Counted from the first letter of the stretch, positions 24,209 through 34,752 are shown. The stretch: 64,000 nucleotides of DNA from Escherichia coli (GCF_002854065.1 NZ_CP024147.1), one strand, 5' to 3'. The notes: generated by a model from the letters alone, not told the origin. Translations and numbers: made by a program.

Positions 24209-24850
24209 ATGCCCCCTCGCGCCCTGTTACTGGTCGATTTACAAAATGATTTCTGTGCTGGTGGCGCGCTCGCCGTGCCGGAAGGTGACAGTACGGTGGA
24301 TGTCGCTAACCGCCTGATTGACTGGTGCCAGTCGCGCGGTGAAGCGGTTATCGCCAGTCAGGACTGGCACCCGGCGAATCACGGCAGTTTTGCCAGCCAG
24401 CACGGTGTAGAGCCTTATACGCCAGGCCAACTCGACGGTTTGCCACAAACCTTCTGGCCAGATCACTGTGTGCAGAACAGTGAAGGCGCACAATTACATC
24501 CGTTACTGAACCAAAAAGCGATCGCAGCGGTGTTCCATAAAGGCGAAAATCCTTTAGTTGACAGTTACAGTGCCTTTTTTGATAACGGCCGTCGGCAGAA
24601 AACCTTTCTCGATGACTGGTTACGCGATCATGAAATCGATGAATTGATCGTTATGGGCCTGGCTACTGACTATTGCGTGAAGTTTACCGTGCTGGACGCG
24701 TTACAGTTAGGTTATAAGGTAAACGTGATTACCGATGGTTGTCGTGGCGTGAATATCCAGCCCCAGGACAGTGCGCACGCGTTTATGGAGATGTCAGCAG
24801 CTGGGGCAACGCTATATACGCTGGCAGACTGGGAAGAGACGCAGGGGTAA
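24209..24850 (+). CDS. pncA: nicotinamidase/pyrazinamidase (213 aa)
   Basis: ORF 24191..24850; start at MPPRALLLVDLQNDF; isochorismatase-family fold; 10 nt after ansA stop. Confidence 0.9.
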   Translation: MPPRALLLVDLQNDFCAGGALAVPEGDSTVDVANRLIDWCQSRGEAVIASQDWHPANHGSFASQHGVEPYTPGQLDGLPQTFWPDHCVQNSEGAQLHPLLNQKAIAAVFHKGENPLVDSYSAFFDNGRRQKTFLDDWLRDHEIDELIVMGLATDYCVKFTVLDALQLGYKVNVITDGCRGVNIQPQDSAHAFMEMSAAGATLYTLADWEETQG

Positions 24851-24859
24851 TTTTACGCT

Positions 24860-24890
24860 GGCCTACAATTCTGTACTGGCATTGTAGGCC
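24860..24890. terminator. hairpin between convergent pncA and ydjE (bidirectional terminator candidate)
   Basis: Perfect inverted repeat GGCCTACAAT...ATTGTAGGCC. Confidence 0.35.
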
Positions 24891-24942
24891 AAATAAAACA
24901 CGTCAGTGGCACATCTGGCAATTGATGCCATCAACGAAAGAT

Positions 24943-26301
24943 TTAATTCACCTCAGAAATCTCTTCCAACGACACCTTCCGCGTTTCGATGCCAAAAATG
25001 GAGAGAACCAGCGCACAGAGCAATAACATGACACCAAGTACCATAAACACCGTGATCGACCCATAATGTGTTAATAATGCCGCAACGCCATAGGGCGTGA
25101 AGACTGCGACGATCCGTCCGACGGCATTAACGAAACCCGAACCGCGCAGGCGTAAATGCGTTGGCCAAAGCTCCGGGATATAAACCGCCGACGCGAAGCA
25201 AACATACATGTATAAAAAGAAGATCATCACCAGGCCATAGATTAAAATCGCCCACTCTGTAGTCTGAATTGAATAGATATAGCCTAACACGGCAATAATA
25301 ATAAGTAAGGTGGAGCCAAATAACCGACGAGGAAAATGATCAATAATTAATGCCGCAATAAATATTCCTACCGGAGCGCCAATCATAATAACAGCGGTCA
25401 TTAATATTGATTTATCGACATCAATGCCGGAGTTAACAAATATGGTCGGTATCCATACGGTGATGGTATAAAGCGAAATGTTCATTGCAATTAAAACAGT
25501 AATCGCGACTAATGTACGTCGTAACATTTCACCTTTAAACAGGAGCCAGAAAGTACCCTTGATTACTTTAACCTTGCTGTTGCTCTGATACGAAGTAAGC
25601 GGGGGTAAACGAATACTCTTCTCTCTTTCAATTTGCTGCTCTACTTCACGAAGTTGGCTTTCTGCACCTGCGATTTGCCCTTTCCCTGCCAGCCATCGTG
25701 GCGACTCAATAAAGTATTTACCTGAAAGAAACCAGGCTAACAGTATGCCAATACCACCCAGCAGAAACATTATCCGCCAACTAAAAAAAGCGATAACCAC
25801 CACACCTATCGCCGCAGACAGCATGGGCGACCAGTTACCAACAAATGAGAGCCGCGCGGACCATTTTCCACGCACCGTCGCGGGGATAAACTCCGTAAAT
25901 GAGGCATAGCCAACCATAATCAGCGCCCCCATTCCTGTTCCCATCAGGAAGCGAAAGAAGATGAGCCAGTACATATCAGGGACAAAAGCGGCCCCTGTTG
26001 CAGCAATACCGACGATGAGAAGATTTATGCGAAACGCCCTGCGCCGCCCAAAGTAATCACCGATGAACCCACCGGTAAGAGAGCCGATGAAATAACCAAA
26101 CATTAATGCCGAGGTAAAGGCGGCATTGAGGAAATTATTTGACCATCCATTGCTTACCAGCTTTGCTAAGACGACATTACCGGAGTAACTCAAAAACCCT
26201 GTTAATAACAGACTAAAGCTTATAATACCAAATATACGATAATGAAACCGGGCCAAAGGCAAGCGGTCCAGTCTTGCGCCAATTTGATCATATTGTTCCA
26301 T
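24943..26301 (-). CDS. ydjE: MFS transporter (452 aa)
   Basis: ORF 24943..26406; start at MEQYDQIGARLDRLPLARFHYRIF; 12 predicted TM-like hydrophobic stretches. Confidence 0.8.
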   Translation of the reverse strand: MEQYDQIGARLDRLPLARFHYRIFGIISFSLLLTGFLSYSGNVVLAKLVSNGWSNNFLNAAFTSALMFGYFIGSLTGGFIGDYFGRRRAFRINLLIVGIAATGAAFVPDMYWLIFFRFLMGTGMGALIMVGYASFTEFIPATVRGKWSARLSFVGNWSPMLSAAIGVVVIAFFSWRIMFLLGGIGILLAWFLSGKYFIESPRWLAGKGQIAGAESQLREVEQQIEREKSIRLPPLTSYQSNSKVKVIKGTFWLLFKGEMLRRTLVAITVLIAMNISLYTITVWIPTIFVNSGIDVDKSILMTAVIMIGAPVGIFIAALIIDHFPRRLFGSTLLIIIAVLGYIYSIQTTEWAILIYGLVMIFFLYMYVCFASAVYIPELWPTHLRLRGSGFVNAVGRIVAVFTPYGVAALLTHYGSITVFMVLGVMLLLCALVLSIFGIETRKVSLEEISEVN

Positions 26302-26418
26302 TGGGTGCCTCGGATTTGCTAAAAAAGGTAGCAATTGCGGCAAATTCACTTGCCGCATCTTTATCATCATTTTATTTCCAGGCGCAGGAACAAATAATAT
26401 TGACAACGTGTGCTTAAA

Positions 26419-27177
26419 TTACCACACCAGCTGGATATTATTGTCTTTGCAAAATGCTATCCACTCTGCACCCGGTGATTTATCAGTTATTATGTAATTA
26501 ATATGACTAAAGTCAGCTAACTGGACAAAAGCTTTGCGATCAAACTTAGAGTGATCAACCAATAACGCAACTTCTGTCGCCTGACGGATCATTGTCTTTT
26601 TGATTTCAGCTTCCGCTTCATTAGAGTCCAGCGCGCCGCTGTTAATATCAAGACCTTTACAACTCATTACCATGATATCGACATGGTAGCGGCTGATGAT
26701 CTCTTTAGTAATTCTTCCTTGCAGTGAAAGTGTATTTTTGTTTAGTTCCCCACCCGTTGAAACGACTTTAATTTCTGACTGAGCCAGAACATGAATCGCT
26801 TCCGCCGAGTTGGTTAGCAACGTCAGGTCACTACGGTCCTGTAACAATTTGAGCAATTCCATTACGGTACTACTGGAATCGGCTGCCATGGTGGTTTTAT
26901 TGTCGATAAAGGGTAGTGCCTTGCGTGCAATAAGCTGCTTCTCTTCATAAAACGATGAAGCGCGCTTATAAAAATGGATATTCTCCGTCAACATCGCTGT
27001 ATTTAAAACAGCACCACCATAGGTTCTGGTCAAAAAGCCTTCATCTTCCAGCTTCTCAAGATCGCGGCGAATGGTTTCTTCGGTTACCTGAAAAATCCCA
27101 CTCAAATTTGAGACTGTCACCTTTTTATCGTTGGCAACCATTTGCTTAATTGCCTGAATCCTGTCTTTTGCCGCCAC
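26419..27177 (-). CDS. ydjF: DeoR-family transcriptional regulator (252 aa)
   Basis: N-terminal HTH (VSNLSGIFQVTEETIRRDLEKLE) plus C-terminal sugar-phosphate-binding domain. Confidence 0.85.
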   Translation of the reverse strand: MAAKDRIQAIKQMVANDKKVTVSNLSGIFQVTEETIRRDLEKLEDEGFLTRTYGGAVLNTAMLTENIHFYKRASSFYEEKQLIARKALPFIDNKTTMAADSSSTVMELLKLLQDRSDLTLLTNSAEAIHVLAQSEIKVVSTGGELNKNTLSLQGRITKEIISRYHVDIMVMSCKGLDINSGALDSNEAEAEIKKTMIRQATEVALLVDHSKFDRKAFVQLADFSHINYIITDKSPGAEWIAFCKDNNIQLVW

Positions 27178-27313
27178 GATTACACCCCTGTATCTTTTTA
27201 CATCACATTAGCGCGATTATCGCATAACCGATGTTTACTTTCAAAATAACCTGTTTGAATCACAGATTTTCATCACAGTTTTCACAGAAACAGAGGTGAA
27301 TCGTGTTGAGTAT

Positions 27314-28294
27314 TTAACGCTCCAGGGCCTCTGCCATTTCCCTCATCAATGTTGCGTCTGCATCCGATAAGTTGATATTCAGTGCTGCGACATTTTCGCG
27401 TACCTGTTCCGGTGCAGTAGCCCCACTAAGAATGGAGATTAAATCACTCTGTTTTAATATCCACGCCAGTGCCAGAGTGGGAATTGTGCACTGATAACGA
27501 GCACAAAGTGGCTGCCACTGTTCAAGCATATCAATCACTTTCAGCATGTTTTCACGCTGGAACCAGACTTTATTTGCCCGAGCGCCGCCCGGAACGTAAT
27601 CACGAGTGATGGTGCCGGTCAACAATCCCTGCTCTAGCGGGGAATAAACCTGAACCACAATGCCATTATCACGACATAGCGGCAGCAGTTCGTTTTCCAT
27701 TGCCCGGTCGAGGATACTGTATTTCGCCTGAATAATATCCAGTTCACCATATTGCAGATACTCGCGGATATGGTCAGCATCGACGTTAGCAGCGCCTATA
27801 GCGCGAATTTTCCCTTCAGCCTTTAACTCATTAAGCACTGCGACAGTTTCAGCGATCGGCGTATAAAATGGCGGCACCGACTGCCAGTGCGTCATGTAGA
27901 TATCGATGTAATCAATACCCAGACGTTGCAAGCTGGCTTCTACCTCTTCGCGGATAGATTCCGGGGAAAGGTTTTTATACAACTGCCGATCGCCAACTTT
28001 GTTGAATAAACTTCCTTTTCGTTCCCAGACAATGCCGCATTTGGTTTCTACTACAACCTGTTCACGGGGCAGTTTTTTTAACGCCTGACCGACGATAACT
28101 TCACTATTGCCAAAGTTATATCCTGGTGCAGTATCAATCAGGTTAATGCCGCAACGATGGGCTTCAAGAATCGTATCAATACATATTTGCCGATCGAGAT
28201 CGCCATTCCATGCAGGACCGCCGCCAATGGCCCATGTCCCCAACCCCATTCGCGAAAGCGTAATATCCGTTGTGCCTAAAGGTATCTTTTTCAT
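27314..28294 (-). CDS. ydjG: aldo-keto reductase (326 aa)
   Basis: ORF track 27314..28294; AKR family pattern. Confidence 0.85.
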   Translation of the reverse strand: MKKIPLGTTDITLSRMGLGTWAIGGGPAWNGDLDRQICIDTILEAHRCGINLIDTAPGYNFGNSEVIVGQALKKLPREQVVVETKCGIVWERKGSLFNKVGDRQLYKNLSPESIREEVEASLQRLGIDYIDIYMTHWQSVPPFYTPIAETVAVLNELKAEGKIRAIGAANVDADHIREYLQYGELDIIQAKYSILDRAMENELLPLCRDNGIVVQVYSPLEQGLLTGTITRDYVPGGARANKVWFQRENMLKVIDMLEQWQPLCARYQCTIPTLALAWILKQSDLISILSGATAPEQVRENVAALNINLSDADATLMREMAEALER

Positions 28295-28303
28295 TTGCCT
28301 TCA

Positions 28304-29251
28304 TTATCCTTCGTATTCTTCCAGCAATTGTTCGACCAGCTTTCTGTTTTTTACGCCGGTGGTGGCACCGACGCTTAGAACCGAGATAGCCGCCGTTGCA
28401 TTGGCAAAGCGTGCGCATTCACGCAGATTTTTGCCTTCTAACAGTGCCGCAATAAAACCTGAAGCAAAGTTATCGCCCGCGCCAATGGTGTCGATGGCGG
28501 TTATTCCTGCGACCGCCGGCACCTTCATCGTCATGTCACCACGCTTGATAAAGCAGCCGTCTTTACCCGTTTTAATCACCACCGTTTTTACGCCGCACGC
28601 AAGAAAGCAGTCAGCAATTTCATCCAGTGTCTCTTTCCCGGTGAGTAATTTTGCCTCGGCATAATTAGGAAACAGATAATCGACATAACTCAATGCTTCG
28701 CAAATATCATCCAGCGTTTCATTCAACCGCGGTTTGATCATATCGGCACAGATAATCATCTGCCGGGCTTTAGCTTGCGTAAAAATTTCTGTTAGCGCTT
28801 TACCATCCAATAGTGGACTGTTGAAAATACTGGCCAGTGATAATAATTTCGCCTGGGAAAACCGCGCAAAATCAACATCGTCAATATTCAATTTCCACAG
28901 ACTGCCGTTACGGTTTGTGACAAACGTCCGCTCGCCATCCTCCGTCACCAGTCCAACATTAATAGAGGTATCTATGTTGACGTCCTGCTTCAGGCTTTGA
29001 ATATCAATATTCTCTTTGCGGCAATGGTCGAGAATAAACTGCCCTGCGGCATCTTTACCAATACGGCTCATTAATGCTGTACGATGGCCCAGACGAGAAA
29101 TAATTGTTGCTTCATTTATTGCATCACCCCCGGTGGTCATTGCGATTCTTTCAAGAGGATAAGAATCCACATCAAAGATATTTTTACTGACCGGTTGCAA
29201 TGGAATATCAACAATAGCGGCACCTATACAAATAACGTCGAGATTATCCAT
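28304..29251 (-). CDS. ydjH: PfkB-family sugar kinase (315 aa)
   Basis: ORF 28304..29272; start at MDNLDVICIGAAIVD; GAGD motif (DTIGAGDNFASGF). Confidence 0.8.
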   Translation of the reverse strand: MDNLDVICIGAAIVDIPLQPVSKNIFDVDSYPLERIAMTTGGDAINEATIISRLGHRTALMSRIGKDAAGQFILDHCRKENIDIQSLKQDVNIDTSINVGLVTEDGERTFVTNRNGSLWKLNIDDVDFARFSQAKLLSLASIFNSPLLDGKALTEIFTQAKARQMIICADMIKPRLNETLDDICEALSYVDYLFPNYAEAKLLTGKETLDEIADCFLACGVKTVVIKTGKDGCFIKRGDMTMKVPAVAGITAIDTIGAGDNFASGFIAALLEGKNLRECARFANATAAISVLSVGATTGVKNRKLVEQLLEEYEG

Positions 29252-29255
29252 ATCA

Positions 29256-30092
29256 TTATTCCGCTTTGCCATCAGAACCGAACAGTTTAATTTTTTCCAA
29301 TGCCCGTTCTTTTACAGCTTTACGTACTTCACGTTCTAAATGCAGGAAAGGCTGATCCTGGTTTTCTTTCACTGCGACCATTGCGGCCTGACAGAGCTCC
29401 GTATGGATGTTGATTTTCGCGATACCTAACGAAATTGCAGTTTTAATGTCGGCATCACTGATCCCCGATGCGCCATGCAAAACCAGCGGAACAGACACGG
29501 CATCGCGTACGCGTTTGACGACCTCAAAGTTCAATTGTGGCTCTGACGTATAAACCCCATGCTGGTTGCCGATGGCGACAGCCAATGAGTCACAGCCCGT
29601 ACGTTCAACAAATTCAGCCGCCTGGTCAGGATCGGTATAGTGATAGCCCGCCAGAGCTTCCTCATAAACGGTTTCATTACCGACATGCCCTAATTCCGCC
29701 TCTACCGGAATACCCAGCGGATGGAAGAAATCAACAGCCTCTTTGGTTAAACGAATATTTTCTTCGAAATCAAATGCGGAAGCATCACGCATTAATGAAT
29801 TCATACCATGAGTCCAGGCGTTATGAATAATCTCCATACTCCGACCATGATCCCAATGAGTTATTACCGGCACCGTTGCTTTTTGTGCCATTGATACCAT
29901 CATGTGAGAGAAATCTTCAAATGAGGTGTTGCCGACAAAACCTGTGCCAAAAGAAATAATAACCGGTGATTTCGCTTCTTCGGCTGCGTCGATAACGCCC
30001 ATCAACATTTCTGCATTCCATACATTAAAATGGGCAATAGCATAACGTTTATTTGTGGCATCGTTTTCCCAATATCTGATATCTGCGAGCAT
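29256..30092 (-). CDS. ydjI: class II (metal-dependent) aldolase (278 aa)
   Basis: ORF track; fructose/tagatose-bisphosphate aldolase class II pattern. Confidence 0.85.
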   Translation of the reverse strand: MLADIRYWENDATNKRYAIAHFNVWNAEMLMGVIDAAEEAKSPVIISFGTGFVGNTSFEDFSHMMVSMAQKATVPVITHWDHGRSMEIIHNAWTHGMNSLMRDASAFDFEENIRLTKEAVDFFHPLGIPVEAELGHVGNETVYEEALAGYHYTDPDQAAEFVERTGCDSLAVAIGNQHGVYTSEPQLNFEVVKRVRDAVSVPLVLHGASGISDADIKTAISLGIAKINIHTELCQAAMVAVKENQDQPFLHLEREVRKAVKERALEKIKLFGSDGKAE

Positions 30093-30112
30093 GTTCTGTT
30101 CTCCCGTATTAA

Positions 30113-31156
30113 TTAATCGCTAATCTTAATAACGCCTTTAATAATGTCGCGTTTGTTGTTAACTGACTCTTCAAATGCCTGTTGTACATCCCGATAATCG
30201 TAAATATGCGTCACCATCGATTTCACATCGAATCGCCCTGAAGAAATAGCTTCAATCGTGACCGGATAACGATTGGCATAGCGGAATACCGTCTGGATAG
30301 TGACTTCACGATTTATTTTGAGGAAATTGATTGCCGAATCGCCGGGTACAGTACCAACAATCATAATTTTACCGCCGCGCATTACCAGATAAGGTGCCTG
30401 TTTAACGGTGACCGCAGAACCCGCTGTTTCGAAAACAACATCTGCGCCCATGTCTTCGGTAAATTGCTGACAGCGTGCAATAGTGTCTTCTTTTGCGCCG
30501 TTAATAACCACTGTCGCACCAAGCTGTTCCGCCATTGCCAGACGTTTTTCCAGCACATCAACGACGGCAATTTCCGTTGCTCCCAGGCATTTGCACGCTT
30601 GCAACGTCATCAAACCAATACAACCTGATCCCAGAATAATTATCTTCTTACCCGGTTTAACATCTGCCAGCATCGCGGCATGCATCCCGACTGCGGCAGG
30701 CTCCACCAGCGCCCCTTCCATCGTGTCCATATTGTCGGGCAGTTTGTAAGTAAAGCTCTCCGGATGACACAGATAGTGCGTTAATGCGCCGCGGTAGTTG
30801 GGTTGTGTCGCCATAAAATCAACGTCCGGGCAGATGTTATATTTGCCTTCCAGACAGTAACGACAGTGACCGCAAGGAACGCCAGGTTCGATATTTACCC
30901 GATCCCCCGTTTTAAATTTGCGCACGCGGCTTCCCACAGCCACAACCGTCCCGGCGCATTCATGACCCAGGCCAATTTCTTGATTTGGGTCTTTAGGCGG
31001 AATAAACGGACCTGATTCAAAACCATGTACATCTGAACCACAAATACCGACATATTCTACTTTAATCAAAACTTCATCTTCTTTAGGCACTGGTATTTCT
31101 GCTGAAATAATTTTCATTGTGCCCGGCACCTGCAATATTGCTTTTGAATTTTTCAT
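30113..31156 (-). CDS. ydjJ: Zn-dependent alcohol/polyol dehydrogenase (347 aa)
   Basis: GHECAG catalytic Zn motif, structural Zn Cys cluster (CGHCRYC), GxGxxG NAD site. Confidence 0.85.
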   Translation of the reverse strand: MKNSKAILQVPGTMKIISAEIPVPKEDEVLIKVEYVGICGSDVHGFESGPFIPPKDPNQEIGLGHECAGTVVAVGSRVRKFKTGDRVNIEPGVPCGHCRYCLEGKYNICPDVDFMATQPNYRGALTHYLCHPESFTYKLPDNMDTMEGALVEPAAVGMHAAMLADVKPGKKIIILGSGCIGLMTLQACKCLGATEIAVVDVLEKRLAMAEQLGATVVINGAKEDTIARCQQFTEDMGADVVFETAGSAVTVKQAPYLVMRGGKIMIVGTVPGDSAINFLKINREVTIQTVFRYANRYPVTIEAISSGRFDVKSMVTHIYDYRDVQQAFEESVNNKRDIIKGVIKISD

Positions 31157-31172
31157 TTTGAATCCACCCGTA

Positions 31173-32552
31173 TTATTTATTGGCTACTGCATCAATACTT
31201 AAACTTTCAACGGAGACACCTTTGGTTTCGATTCCAATGGTGGCGATAGCAATTGCGACAATAATTGAAACCGCCCCCAGAAGAATAAAGACTCCCGTAA
31301 CGCCATAACTACTGAGCAGCACTGCAACGGCATAAGGTGCGGCAATACCACTGATTCGCCCTACCGCATTCGCCAGACCGGAGCCACGGAGTTTGGCCTC
31401 TGTCGGCCAGATCTCAGGGACATACACTGCCGAGGCATAGCAAACGTACATATAGACGAAAGTAATCAGGAAGAAACCAATCAACGTTATGAGCAACATG
31501 CTGGTTTGCAGTGAATAGATATATCCGAGCACCGCAATCAGGATTAATAGCCCCACACCCATTGTTTTACGCGGAATTTTATCCATCACCAGCATGGCAA
31601 TAAAAATGCCAAATGGCGCGCCAAACATACTCATGGTATTTAAAACAATCGAGTCTTTTAAATTAATCCCCTGGGTCATGAATATCGTTGGCAACCAGTT
31701 AATTAGTGTGTACTGCACAACGTTCATGGCAATCAGCACACAAGAGCCTAATATCACGCGTTTCAGTAATACTCCTGTCAGTAAGGCTGAATATGGCACC
31801 GCTTGTGGTGCTTTACCGTCATCAGCAATAACCACGGGCGGCAAAGGTTTACCTGTATGGCGTATGACGCCTTCTTCTATACTCCGCATGACTTTCTCGG
31901 CTTCCTGATACCGTCCGCGCGATTCCAGCCAGCGCGGGGATTCAGGAAAGTAGCGCCAGGCCAGCGCCGTAGCGATAAGCGACAATATTGCAGGGATAAG
32001 CAGTTGTACCCGCCAGTTCCACTCTGCACTAATCAGCGGCGTGAGTCCCATCGCTATCAATGAACAGAGCGGATATGACCAGTTGCCAATAAAGGAAACC
32101 CGACTTGACCACGTTCCACGATTTCTACCGGGCATATATTCGGTGAAACCAGCAAACAGCGTAACCAGTAAAGCTCCCAGCCCAACTCCCATCACAAAAC
32201 GGCAGGCAATAAGGAAATCCATATTCGGTGAGAAAGCACCGACAACCATCGAGGCAATATGAATGGCCTCATAGAGGATGAACGCATTTCTGCGACCGGT
32301 TTTGTCGCCAATGATGCCGCCCACCAGCGCACCGAGAAACATTCCGGCGGTCGTGATTGCTGAGAATGTGGCTGTGGTGGAATTATCTGTCCAGCCCAAC
32401 GCTTTCAGCTGCGCGAGGATCAAGCCACCAACGGCATTACTCCAGCAGACAAGCAAGCCAAACGCGACGATGGCAAACATTGACGAATGCCAGCGGCAAT
32501 CCGGTAAGCGATCCAGCCGTGCACCACAATGCGGTTTTGTTATCTGTTCCAT
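31173..32552 (-). CDS. ydjK: MFS sugar transporter (459 aa)
   Basis: ORF track; 12-helix MFS pattern. Confidence 0.85.
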   Translation of the reverse strand: MEQITKPHCGARLDRLPDCRWHSSMFAIVAFGLLVCWSNAVGGLILAQLKALGWTDNSTTATFSAITTAGMFLGALVGGIIGDKTGRRNAFILYEAIHIASMVVGAFSPNMDFLIACRFVMGVGLGALLVTLFAGFTEYMPGRNRGTWSSRVSFIGNWSYPLCSLIAMGLTPLISAEWNWRVQLLIPAILSLIATALAWRYFPESPRWLESRGRYQEAEKVMRSIEEGVIRHTGKPLPPVVIADDGKAPQAVPYSALLTGVLLKRVILGSCVLIAMNVVQYTLINWLPTIFMTQGINLKDSIVLNTMSMFGAPFGIFIAMLVMDKIPRKTMGVGLLILIAVLGYIYSLQTSMLLITLIGFFLITFVYMYVCYASAVYVPEIWPTEAKLRGSGLANAVGRISGIAAPYAVAVLLSSYGVTGVFILLGAVSIIVAIAIATIGIETKGVSVESLSIDAVANK

Positions 32553-32578
32553 GCGATAACGTTCCTTCAGGAAAGTTG

Positions 32579-33655
32579 TTATTCATCAAAGTCGTAAGTC
32601 ATGATCACTTTGATTGCGGTTTTATCGACCATCGCATCAAACCCTTCGCACCATTGCGACAGGCCGATACGATGCGTGATCATCGGTTTGACTTTGATAG
32701 CGCCGCTGGCTAATAGCCTGATAGCGTTACGCCATGAGGTGGAGTCATAGGCCATATGCCCAATGATGCTTTTGTTCCAGGCGGTAATGTCATTAATCGA
32801 GAAATCAAGAGGTTTGAAGCCCATTCCAACGCGTACCACTTCCCCGTTCGGGCGGAGCATTTCGATGGCTTGTTTCAGTGCGATATTGGCACCGGAGCAT
32901 TCAATCACCAGTCCCAGATTGTCTTTGCCACAAATTTGCTGGCAGCGCGCCACCACATCTTCGGTAGAACCATTTACTACTGCCGTCGCACCCAGTTCTT
33001 TTGCAACCGGGAAGCGGACCGCCACATCTTCTTGCAGACCAACGACGACGATATTTACCGCCCCCATAATTCGCGCCATTTGTACGGAGAACAGCCCGAG
33101 TGGGCCAGTGCCGATGACGACCACATCCTGACCAGGAAGGAATTTCGATTGCTGCGCGATGGATTTGTAGGCATTACAGATAGGGTCAAGTACGGCTGCG
33201 TCCTCATAATCAACACCATCAGGGATTTCCCACAACGCATGACGATGAATTTTGAGAATTTCACCAGGTACCAGACAATATTTGGAAAAACCACCGCCCC
33301 AGGTATTATTATCCAGACCAAGGTTTACTTTTTCTGTACAACACAGAAAATCACCTTGTTCACAGGCCGGACAAACGCCGCAAACGTGACCGCTGTTATC
33401 CGATACGACGCGTTGCCCCACTTTCCAGTCTTTGACTTTTTCACCAACCTGCGCAATACAACCTGCGAACTCATGGCCGCGGATAGAGTTAAACTCATCA
33501 GAATCGCTATCGACATTGTAGTGCTTCATGTCTGCGCCGCAGATTGCCGCGGCTTTAATTTCAATCACTACATCTTCCGGGCCACACATGGGTTGTGGGA
33601 CATCAATCATCTTGTAGCCGCCAAAGGCCTTGCCAAACCGAGCCAATGCTTTCAT
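32579..33655 (-). CDS. ydjL: Zn-dependent dehydrogenase (358 aa)
   Basis: GHEFAG Zn motif, CxxCxxC cluster; first gene of a minus-strand ydjLKJIHG array. Confidence 0.85.
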   Translation of the reverse strand: MKALARFGKAFGGYKMIDVPQPMCGPEDVVIEIKAAAICGADMKHYNVDSDSDEFNSIRGHEFAGCIAQVGEKVKDWKVGQRVVSDNSGHVCGVCPACEQGDFLCCTEKVNLGLDNNTWGGGFSKYCLVPGEILKIHRHALWEIPDGVDYEDAAVLDPICNAYKSIAQQSKFLPGQDVVVIGTGPLGLFSVQMARIMGAVNIVVVGLQEDVAVRFPVAKELGATAVVNGSTEDVVARCQQICGKDNLGLVIECSGANIALKQAIEMLRPNGEVVRVGMGFKPLDFSINDITAWNKSIIGHMAYDSTSWRNAIRLLASGAIKVKPMITHRIGLSQWCEGFDAMVDKTAIKVIMTYDFDE

Positions 33656-33730
33656 TGCGTCATCCTCTGTGTTTTGTTTTGCTTAGATGGCCATCATACT
33701 TACCCACATGATTTTTGAGGTCAACATTAA

Positions 33731-33747
33731 ATCTGTAAAACACAGAT
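33731..33747. promoter_or_regulatory. perfect palindrome upstream of ydjL (candidate operator)
   Basis: ATCTGT-aaaac-ACAGAT about 75 nt upstream of the ydjL ATG, adjacent to a TTGACC -35-like hexamer on the minus strand. Confidence 0.3.
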
Positions 33748-34024
33748 AATGATCTGCGTTTTACAACTTAGATCACAATTACGCAGAAAATGGCTCGGTC
33801 TGTTACAGGTTGATGGAAGGCGGGACGCAAAAAGAGCAAATTCGAGAGGGATTACCGGCCAAATAGGTCTGAGACTTAAGTTCAGGAGAAGTCATTCAGG
33901 CGTGAACGCGACTGCAAGAGATCGGACTGGGACTTAGCCAGGTCGGGGCGAGATAATTGAGACGAGTCGTGGGGTCATTGTTGGCTATCCCCTTCATAGC
34001 CGCGGCAAAAAGGGGATGAACCAC

Positions 34025-34297
34025 TTACTTAAACATGGCAATCGGCTTTGCTGAGATACCAAAATCTTCTTTTAACTGCTGTTTGCTCTTCATGACCATC
34101 TGACCATTTGTGTCAATTGTCATATGCTGCGCTTCGGTATTATTGCGGGCTTGCCACAGCATCACGAGTTGCAGGCAGTTCTCTTTTTGTTCCTCGGTCA
34201 ACGCAACGCCATCGGGCCATTTCCCCAGTTCAACGGCGGTCGACAAACGCTGGTATACCTCAGGCGTCATGCTGTTGATAATGTCATCAAGATTCAT
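34025..34297 (-). CDS. yeaC: DUF1315 family protein (90 aa)
   Basis: ORF 34025..34342; start at MNLDDIINSMTPEVYQRL. Confidence 0.8.
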   Translation of the reverse strand: MNLDDIINSMTPEVYQRLSTAVELGKWPDGVALTEEQKENCLQLVMLWQARNNTEAQHMTIDTNGQMVMKSKQQLKEDFGISAKPIAMFK

Positions 34298-34338
34298 AAT
34301 TTTTCCGCTCCTGTGGAATAAGCTGCTGAATCGTTTTT

Positions 34339-34752
34339 TCAACCGTTGATTTCTTCGCCGTTTTCGCCATCAGTGAAGCGTAAAGAGGCAGAGTTAACAC
34401 AATAACGTTCGCCCGTTGGCTGCGGCCCGTCGGGGAAGACATGTCCCAGATGGGCATCACAGTTACCGCAACGAATTTCTATGCGCTGCATTCCATGTGA
34501 CAAGTCTTTGATATAACGAATGGATTCTTCACTTACCGGTTCGTAGAAACTGGGCCAGCCACAGCCGGAATCATACTTGGTTTGGGAATGAAACAGCGGG
34601 GCATCGCAGATCAAACAGTGATATACGCCGTCACGCTTGTTATGCAGTAAACGACCCGTAAATGGCGGCTCTGTCCCATGATTCTGCGTCACGTAAAACT
34701 GCATCTCGGACAAATTTTTTTTCAGTTCTTCTGCCGAAGGTTTATTAGCCAT
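34339..34752 (-). CDS. msrB: peptide methionine-(R)-sulfoxide reductase (137 aa)
   Basis: ORF 34339..34782; start at [12 protein letters not shown]; two CxxC Zn-site pairs and catalytic Cys. Confidence 0.9.

Follow-up and report, generated by a model that had tools for sequence, protein, structure and literature searches.

The closest described relatives of the locus studied here are catabolic operons placed under DeoR-family regulators. The locus is the ydj gene cluster of Escherichia coli, eight genes from ydjE to ydjL, which we analyzed in a stretch of 64,000 nucleotides of genome GCF_002854065.1 (NZ_CP024147.1; this whole stretch is the window below, and positions are counted from its first letter). 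The element in question is a palindrome upstream of ydjL, which an earlier note, made from the sequence alone, had proposed as a candidate operator. The published ydj cluster of strain K-12 occupies the same locus with an identical gene order and shows no gene difference from the one analyzed here; YdjI, YdjH and YdjJ match PDB entries. The gat and aga operons (for galactitol and N-acetylgalactosamine, with the regulators GatR and AgaR) likewise hold a class II aldolase, a Zn-dependent dehydrogenase and a DeoR-family regulator in one block, and the gatY promoter is likewise a gut-responsive trigger (PMC6561318). Unlike them, the eight-gene ydj block has neither phosphotransferase system genes nor a GatZ/KbaZ partner, and YdjI, as summarized in the literature, cleaves ketose 1-phosphates with an anionic far end and not tagatose bisphosphate. 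The sulfoquinovose (yih) operon, with its regulator CsqR/YihW, resembles ydj in having a kinase, an aldolase yielding dihydroxyacetone phosphate (DHAP) and an anionic aldehyde, an aldehyde reductase, two transporters and a DeoR regulator, and both operons are reported to be activated by Crp (PMC8085971). The likeness is one of pathway logic only: yih uses a class I aldolase and an isomerase, whereas ydj has a class II aldolase and dehydrogenases.

On the regulatory side, GlpR and DeoR repress by looping between tandem operators about 20 bp apart and distant auxiliary operators; the glpD operators lie inside the structural gene, and deo has the operators O1, O2 and OE. YdjF, the regulator encoded in the ydj cluster, belongs to the same family, but its box sequence differs, and its binding and looping are predictions. 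It was listed as an uncharacterized DeoR-family factor by Ishihama in 2016; no later paper characterizing it was found in the searchable literature, where the papers naming ydjF go no further than an expression cluster and a synonymous polymorphism.

The ydj cluster is thus a known, annotated and partly studied orphan pathway, among the better known of the sugar pathways of this kind in E. coli, and not a discovery, and the earlier note's claim to novelty shrinks to a small one. What is new here, and well supported as computational prediction, is a map of putative YdjF operators that includes an intragenic site, the conservation across phyla, and the exact limits of the island; in the searchable literature, neither the operator map, the intragenic site, the island limits nor the cross-phylum synteny appears to have been described.

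The flagged palindrome, ATCTGTaaaacACAGAT (ATCTGT-aaaac-ACAGAT), lies exactly at 33731-33747. It precedes the ydjL ATG by 76 to 92 nt and a conserved TTGACC hexamer (33724-33719) by 6 nt; the earlier description of a perfect palindrome beside a -35-like hexamer holds. By itself, such a palindrome is not beyond chance, and its significance comes only from comparative evidence: the window contains 25 perfect 6-5-6 palindromes against 16 +/- 4 in shuffled sequences, and 254 palindromes when spacers of 0 to 10 nt are considered, while the same pattern with two mismatches allowed is as frequent in the window as in shuffles. Perfect symmetry is limited to E. coli and a few other taxa, the right arm being AAAGAT in Citrobacter and Klebsiella. 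We rejected the perfect 6-5-6 palindrome as the functional unit, since the right arm reads AAAGAT in most genera and the arms of the copy in the ydjF promoter are spaced differently.

The comparative evidence comes from a Gibbs sampler applied to 10 ydjL upstream regions of non-enterobacterial origin (Firmicutes and Actinobacteria), with no E. coli input so as to avoid circularity. It converged on the 17-bp consensus TCTKTGTTTYAMAGATT, and the 10 sites supplied a matrix with which all 127,968 positions of the 64-kb window were scored. The first-ranking match, at 21.9 bits, is the primary predicted YdjF box, O_L1 (TCTGTGTTTTACAGATT, minus strand, 33730-33746), which has the flagged palindrome as its core. 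The second, O_F1 (TGTTTGAATCACAGATT, plus strand, 27252-27268; 16.9 bits), is a conserved predicted box in the ydjF promoter, within the ydjG-ydjF spacer, and the third, O_int (TCTGTGTTGTACAGAAA, minus strand, 33331-33347; 16.3 bits), a predicted box inside ydjL. These three all fall within the cluster, and the fourth (14.4 bits) outside it. In 22 independent Enterobacterales loci, totaling 448 kb, 84 of the 104 matches scoring at least 12 bits were found at the three orthologous places, and the O_L1 box was present in 22/22. Because O_L1 is the top window match of a motif learned from other phyla, and is conserved in comparison, the palindrome stands beyond chance. The predicted YdjF box is, on this comparative evidence, cluster-specific and conserved across phyla. 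YdjF is encoded by the only transcription-factor gene of the island, a gene syntenic across phyla, and its helix-turn-helix (HTH) segment, VTEETIRRDLEKLE, varies hardly at all between E. coli and Actinobacteria.

The flagged palindrome is thus very probably the main predicted docking site of YdjF. The proposal of an operator is strongly supported by the cross-phylum conservation of the motif, with the amendment that the conserved unit is the 17-bp box at 33730-33746; and the single operator proposed turns out to be the strongest of five or six, others lying in the ydjF promoter and in ydjL. Next to O_L1 lies a weaker box, O_L2 (plus strand, 33753-33769; 9.8 bits). It is inverted with respect to O_L1, and the pair therefore forms a larger imperfect palindrome (TGTAAAACACAGAT / ATCTGCGTTTTACA, 33734-33765), complementary at 13/14 positions, which encloses the flagged region. 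A weak box, O_L3 (minus strand, 33710-33726; 6.1 bits), covers the ydjL -35 hexamer, where its counterpart reaches 13.6 bits in Klebsiella oxytoca and 19.0 in Budvicia. The ydjF -35 hexamer is likewise covered by a weaker box, O_F2 (plus strand, 27232-27248; 12.1 bits). Upstream of ydjE, the matrix scan found no box of at least 4 bits in the ydjF-ydjE intergenic region. Inside ydjI there is a modest match (29408-29424; 11.4 bits), at a position that scores 17.4 bits in Citrobacter youngae (L010) and C. braakii (L011); it could represent another intragenic site or a coding coincidence.

The box inside ydjL shows a marked constraint at the nucleotide level. O_int covers codons 103-108 (F-L-C-C-T-E-K) and is invariant by nucleotide in 25/25 Enterobacterales, a rare ACA codon included, while the neighboring codons vary. 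Its third-position entropy, 0.16-0.30 bits where the gene averages about 1.05, is the lowest of the 352 windows in ydjL and of the 2,739 codon windows across the eight genes. The distance between the centers of O_int and O_L1 is 399 bp, or about 38 helical turns, and this spacing is kept within about +/-2 bp in 21/22 related loci, Budvicia being the one that differs. O_int is not conserved in Firmicutes. By analogy with DeoR and GlpR, we propose that it is probably an auxiliary looping operator, and, as predicted, it offers a clean example of regulatory DNA limiting the choice of synonymous codons.

Alignment of 25 Enterobacterales ydjL upstream regions revealed three conserved features: TTTGTGATCT.AGTTGTGAAATGCAGATC; ATCTGTGTTTTA[A/C]AGATTT; and TTGACC followed, after a 17-nt spacer, by AAGTAT. 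This last footprint defines the putative ydjL promoter (minus strand, 33696-33724; -35 at 33724-33719, -10 at 33701-33696), with a transcription start predicted near 33689; in its -10, distant taxa too retain the A at position 2 and the T at position 6. The ydjL promoter proposed by an automated scan (-35 TTTACA at 33739-33734, -10 AAAAAT at 33716-33711) was discarded, the TTGACC/AAGTAT pair being the one conserved across genera. The putative ydjF promoter (minus strand, 27216-27244) has a -35 TTGAAA (27244-27239), a 17-nt spacer and a TG-extended -10 GATAAT (27221-27216); it matches the consensus at 10/12 positions and is conserved in relatives. The E. coli boxes are phased by 20-23 bp, about two helical turns. 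Firmicutes and Actinobacteria have direct arrays of boxes with a phasing of 20-21 bp, the last member lying on the -35 hexamer, and K. oxytoca and Budvicia also have a tandem array that reaches the -35 with a strong box.

Further upstream, ATTGTGATCT (minus strand, 33770-33779) is a CRP-like left half-site, nearly invariant in the Enterobacterales alignment. Compared to the 22-bp CRP site TGTGA-N6-TCACA, the left half matches at 10/11 positions and the right half at 3/11, and a full palindromic CRP site was rejected because the left half alone matches. The ydjLKJIHG operon has been added to the Crp-activated set, and its promoter was shifted by Crp in an electrophoretic mobility shift assay (PMC8085971); the half-site is the likely seat of this reported binding. 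This strain shares its ydjF promoter and O_int sequences exactly with K-12 DH1, and the region 33690-33785 has one difference, at 33769 (T here, C in DH1); this position is at the edge of O_L2 and within the CRP-like spacer.

On these predictions, we give a probability of roughly 0.6 to the model in which YdjF is a DeoR-type repressor that acts on tandem operators, probably with a loop to the intragenic operator, and regulates its own gene, with CRP as a co-activator. YdjF would bind the 17-bp boxes cooperatively, the proximal box covering the -35 of both the ydjL and the ydjF promoters; the boxes are phased and the proximal one sits on the -35, and therefore cooperatively bound YdjF would occlude RNA polymerase, so that the operon would be repressed and ydjF autoregulated. 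The O_int box, 399 bp away, would probably stabilize repression through DNA looping. Among the triggers silent in culture and active during transit through the healthy mouse gut, the ydjL promoter is one of the two that behaved most consistently (PMC6561318), and we suppose that an intermediate of the pathway present in the gut would release YdjF, while CRP-cAMP would add catabolite control. Several points weigh against this model. The matrix derives from 10 sites only, two of which are weak (L032 and L038); the E. coli box over the ydjL -35 is itself weak, at 6.1 bits; the strong box O_L1 lies at about -57 to -41, a position that activators also use; and the constraint on O_int could instead reflect a function at the RNA level or of another kind.

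The position of O_L1 leads directly to the alternative that YdjF is, like FucR, an inducer-dependent activator, which from these same boxes would recruit RNA polymerase from about -50. It is consistent with the silence of the ydjL promoter in vitro (PMC6561318), with the weakness of the E. coli ydjL -10, AAGTAT, and with the distance from the strong box to the -35, which is fixed at 7-8 nt from E. coli to Clostridia; in addition, YdjF scores against the FucR model about as well as against repressor models. The fixed distance, however, is equally explained by a 20-21 bp phasing onto the weak -35 box. Moreover, activation should be superfluous at the Firmicute promoters, whose hexamers (TTGACT/TAAAAT, TTGAAA/TACAAT) are good, a box lies on the -35 of the promoter of ydjF itself, and an auxiliary site within a gene is a typical feature of looping repressors. 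Most characterized DeoR-family members are repressors, which also counts against activation; we consider it unlikely.

It appears distinctly improbable that a different factor, for example CRP, another global regulator or a nucleoid protein, occupies the conserved box in place of YdjF. The boxes are AT-rich, the CRP-like half-site TGTGATCT adjoins them, and Crp shifts the promoter (PMC8085971), but the box is unlike TGTGA-N6-TCACA and is kept upstream of ydjL in two groups that have no CRP or IHF of the E. coli type, the Firmicutes and the Actinobacteria. It also recurs at the promoter of ydjF itself, and in the 448 kb of flanking sequence it is essentially limited to the cluster.

We give still less credit to an RNA hairpin formed by the O_L2/O_L1 pair, whether as a terminator of yeaC/msrB read-through or as a structure of the ydjL 5' leader. 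The minus-strand RNA does fold, at -18.3 kcal/mol (z = -4.6), and a terminator scan flagged 33766-33733. Its stem, however, contains no more than 4 G-C pairs, and its tail, AUUUAAUGUU, makes a poor U-run; Citrobacter and Klebsiella have a divergent GH18 gene upstream, which leaves nothing to terminate, and the blocks are still conserved there; the Firmicute boxes are direct repeats, unable to form a hairpin; and the hairpin lies upstream of the conserved -35 and -10 hexamers. A search of Rfam with 24500-34500 returned no RNA family. Finally, a functionless chance feature, as the 25 perfect palindromes in place of 16 +/- 4 and the loss of the perfect right arm in Citrobacter or Klebsiella might suggest, is hardly credible for what is the top window position of a motif learned from other phyla, in a block conserved in 24 Enterobacterales.

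The operator map provides a handle on the substrate: a ydjL-promoter reporter, or purified YdjF together with O_L1 DNA, could serve to retrieve the inducer from gut contents, in which the promoter is known to become active. The biochemistry of the K-12 cluster was reportedly addressed by Huddleston and Raushel in Biochemistry in 2019 (58:3340 and 3354). The structures of YdjH, YdjI and YdjJ have been solved, and YdjH and YdjI were characterized in vitro. According to the summary of two papers of the Raushel laboratory given in PMC9602453, the pathway is only partly determined; YdjH and YdjI favor long-chain monosaccharides with a carboxylate end, C7-C9 keto-uronates in vitro, and the best compound for both, L-glycero-L-galacto-octuluronate (or its 1-phosphate) for the YdjH kinase and the YdjI aldolase, has, in that summary, no known natural source. 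The label of unresolved substrate given by the earlier note is to that extent still fair, and its scheme of uptake, oxidation, phosphorylation and aldol cleavage of a polyol or sugar acid fits both the annotation and the published partial biochemistry. In this scheme, YdjK would import an anionic polyol or an aldonate-type carbohydrate, YdjJ and/or YdjL would oxidize it to a 2-ketose, YdjH would phosphorylate the ketose, YdjI would cleave the product to DHAP and an aldehyde, and YdjG would reduce this aldehyde. The kinase and aldolase steps were demonstrated in vitro with C7-C9 keto-uronates and we infer the others; the scheme is weakened by the individual roles of the dehydrogenases and the direction of the YdjG step, which are guesses. 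Our computation did not narrow the ydj substrate any further.

The region 24500-34500 is E. coli chromosome, 100% identical in DNA to strain CUWW06 and 99.0% to K-12 DH1. In RefSeq its neighbors are pncA on one side and yeaC-msrB-gapA on the other, with ydjE to ydjL between them, all on the minus strand; open reading frames (ORFs) and RefSeq agree on the eight consecutive minus-strand genes (24943-33655) reported earlier, and Pfam confirmed each of the protein families assigned to them. This is the ydj accessory island of E. coli, in which the ydjLKJIHG operon is accompanied by the gene of the regulator, ydjF, and by that of a second transporter, ydjE. At its left, ydjE (24943-26301) encodes a major facilitator superfamily (MFS) transporter, 44% identical to its paralogue YdjK; its longest ORF starts at a TTG at 26406, compared to the annotated ATG at 26301, while the other ORFs agree with the annotation. 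The product of ydjF (26419-27177) is a DeoR/GlpR-family regulator with an N-terminal HTH_DeoR domain (PF08220, 2.9e-17) and a C-terminal DeoRC sensor domain (PF00455, 2.4e-49). It falls below the NCBIfam equivalog cut-offs of GlpR, AgaR, SrlR, FucR, DeoR, UlaR, YgbI and YciT, its best scores being 171.6 (cut-off 300), 152.8 (260), 138.1 (350) and 137.7 (259).

Among the enzymes, the aldo-keto reductase encoded by ydjG (27314-28294) is the only one of the eight proteins to match a named NCBIfam equivalog, 'NADH-dependent methylglyoxal reductase' (628.6 bits, cut-off 550). The gene ydjH (28304-29251) encodes a PfkB sugar kinase matching PDB 3H49 (E = 2e-205) and 3IN1, and ydjI (29256-30092) a class II (Zn) aldolase matching PDB 6OFU, 'YdjI aldolase' (E = 6e-187). 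The one model whose cut-off YdjI reaches is a generic one for the ketose-bisphosphate aldolase subfamily (324 against 215.6); YdjI scores under the equivalog cut-offs of GatY (239.6 against 383) and KbaY (186.2 against 542). The other six proteins of the island, besides YdjG and YdjI, are under every curated NCBIfam cut-off. Two Zn-dependent dehydrogenases of the MDR family, only 28% identical to each other, are encoded by ydjJ (30113-31156) and ydjL (32579-33655). The first is of the sorbitol/polyol dehydrogenase type, matching PDB 5VM2 (E = 3e-233) and next best a ketose reductase and a sorbitol dehydrogenase, and the second resembles threonine dehydrogenase. Between them, ydjK (31173-32552) encodes the other MFS transporter.

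The island is polymorphic within the species. Homology in strain 7_33_46A ends at 24908 and resumes at 34015, which delimits a presence/absence block of about 9.1 kb (24909-34014). Of 5425 complete E. coli genomes, 4262 have this block and about 21% lack it; in island-free strains, pncA lies next to yeaC, from which about 80 bp of unrelated sequence separate it. Its G+C content is 43-47% over most of its length (51% over ydjL), compared to about 50% in the flanks.

Beyond E. coli, a YdjL scan with one genome per species yielded 41 loci. The full ydjL-K-J-I-H-G-F(-E) order is found in Escherichia, Citrobacter, the K. oxytoca group, Raoultella, Yokenella, Budvicia, Enterobacillus and Symbiopectobacterium, and also in Lachnospiraceae, Eubacteriaceae, Anaerococcus, Megamonas and an Atopobiaceae genome; non-enterobacterial orthologues are 76-84% (YdjL) and 71-82% (YdjI) identical to the E. 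coli proteins. The Firmicute and Actinobacteria versions (L023-L038) usually add a gene of the ribulose-phosphate 3-epimerase family (PF00834, 1.8e-46; for examples, L029 11101-11793, L036 11074-11769 and L038 16386-17078), which has no counterpart in the E. coli cluster and hints at a C3 epimerization of the ketose phosphate in the pathway. Two Clostridia (L025 15923-20732 and L034 16017-20854) lack YdjK, and there a Liv-type ABC permease/ATPase set and a sugar kinase of the FGGY family come after ydjF. The gap between yeaC and ydjL, 369 bp in E. coli, is 2 kb longer in Citrobacter and Klebsiella, where it holds an unrelated, divergent GH18 chitinase-like gene and an HNH-like ORF (L004 8013-9731 in C. 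youngae); this extra stretch was rejected as a part of the pathway.

Tentatively, and with somewhat less than even confidence, we see ydj as a gut module shared horizontally among Enterobacterales, Lachnospiraceae, Eubacteriaceae, Anaerococcus, Megamonas and Atopobiaceae for a carbohydrate pathway that has yet to be described. Its substrate would be an anionic C7-C9 polyol or keto-acid found in the healthy mouse gut, and it may be controlled everywhere by the same YdjF box, with the ydjL looping operator in addition in Enterobacterales. Sharing across phyla, with anaerobes of the gut, and presence/absence polymorphism mark the island as a niche-specific trait. The understanding of such operons is unchanged by these findings, the object being of an ordinary kind.

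Some smaller features complete the picture of the locus. The ydjF/ydjE spacer holds a conserved minus-strand hairpin (GCGGCAA...TTGCCGC, 26336-26357), preceded by a conserved ATGATGAT; its stem is kept in 17 taxa, with a few compensatory changes, and it is possibly a ydjF terminator or a ydjE leader element. In O157:H7 strains (for examples, NZ_CP033605.1 and NZ_CP062702.1), an IS3-family transposase interrupts the ydj block and one MFS gene does not bear the ydjE name, and strain OkiPb01695 has an inserted ISEc8 element. At the left edge of the island, just downstream of pncA, a repetitive extragenic palindromic (REP)-like inverted repeat (GGCCTACAAT...CATTGTAGGCC, 24856-24895) is present in island-free strains too.

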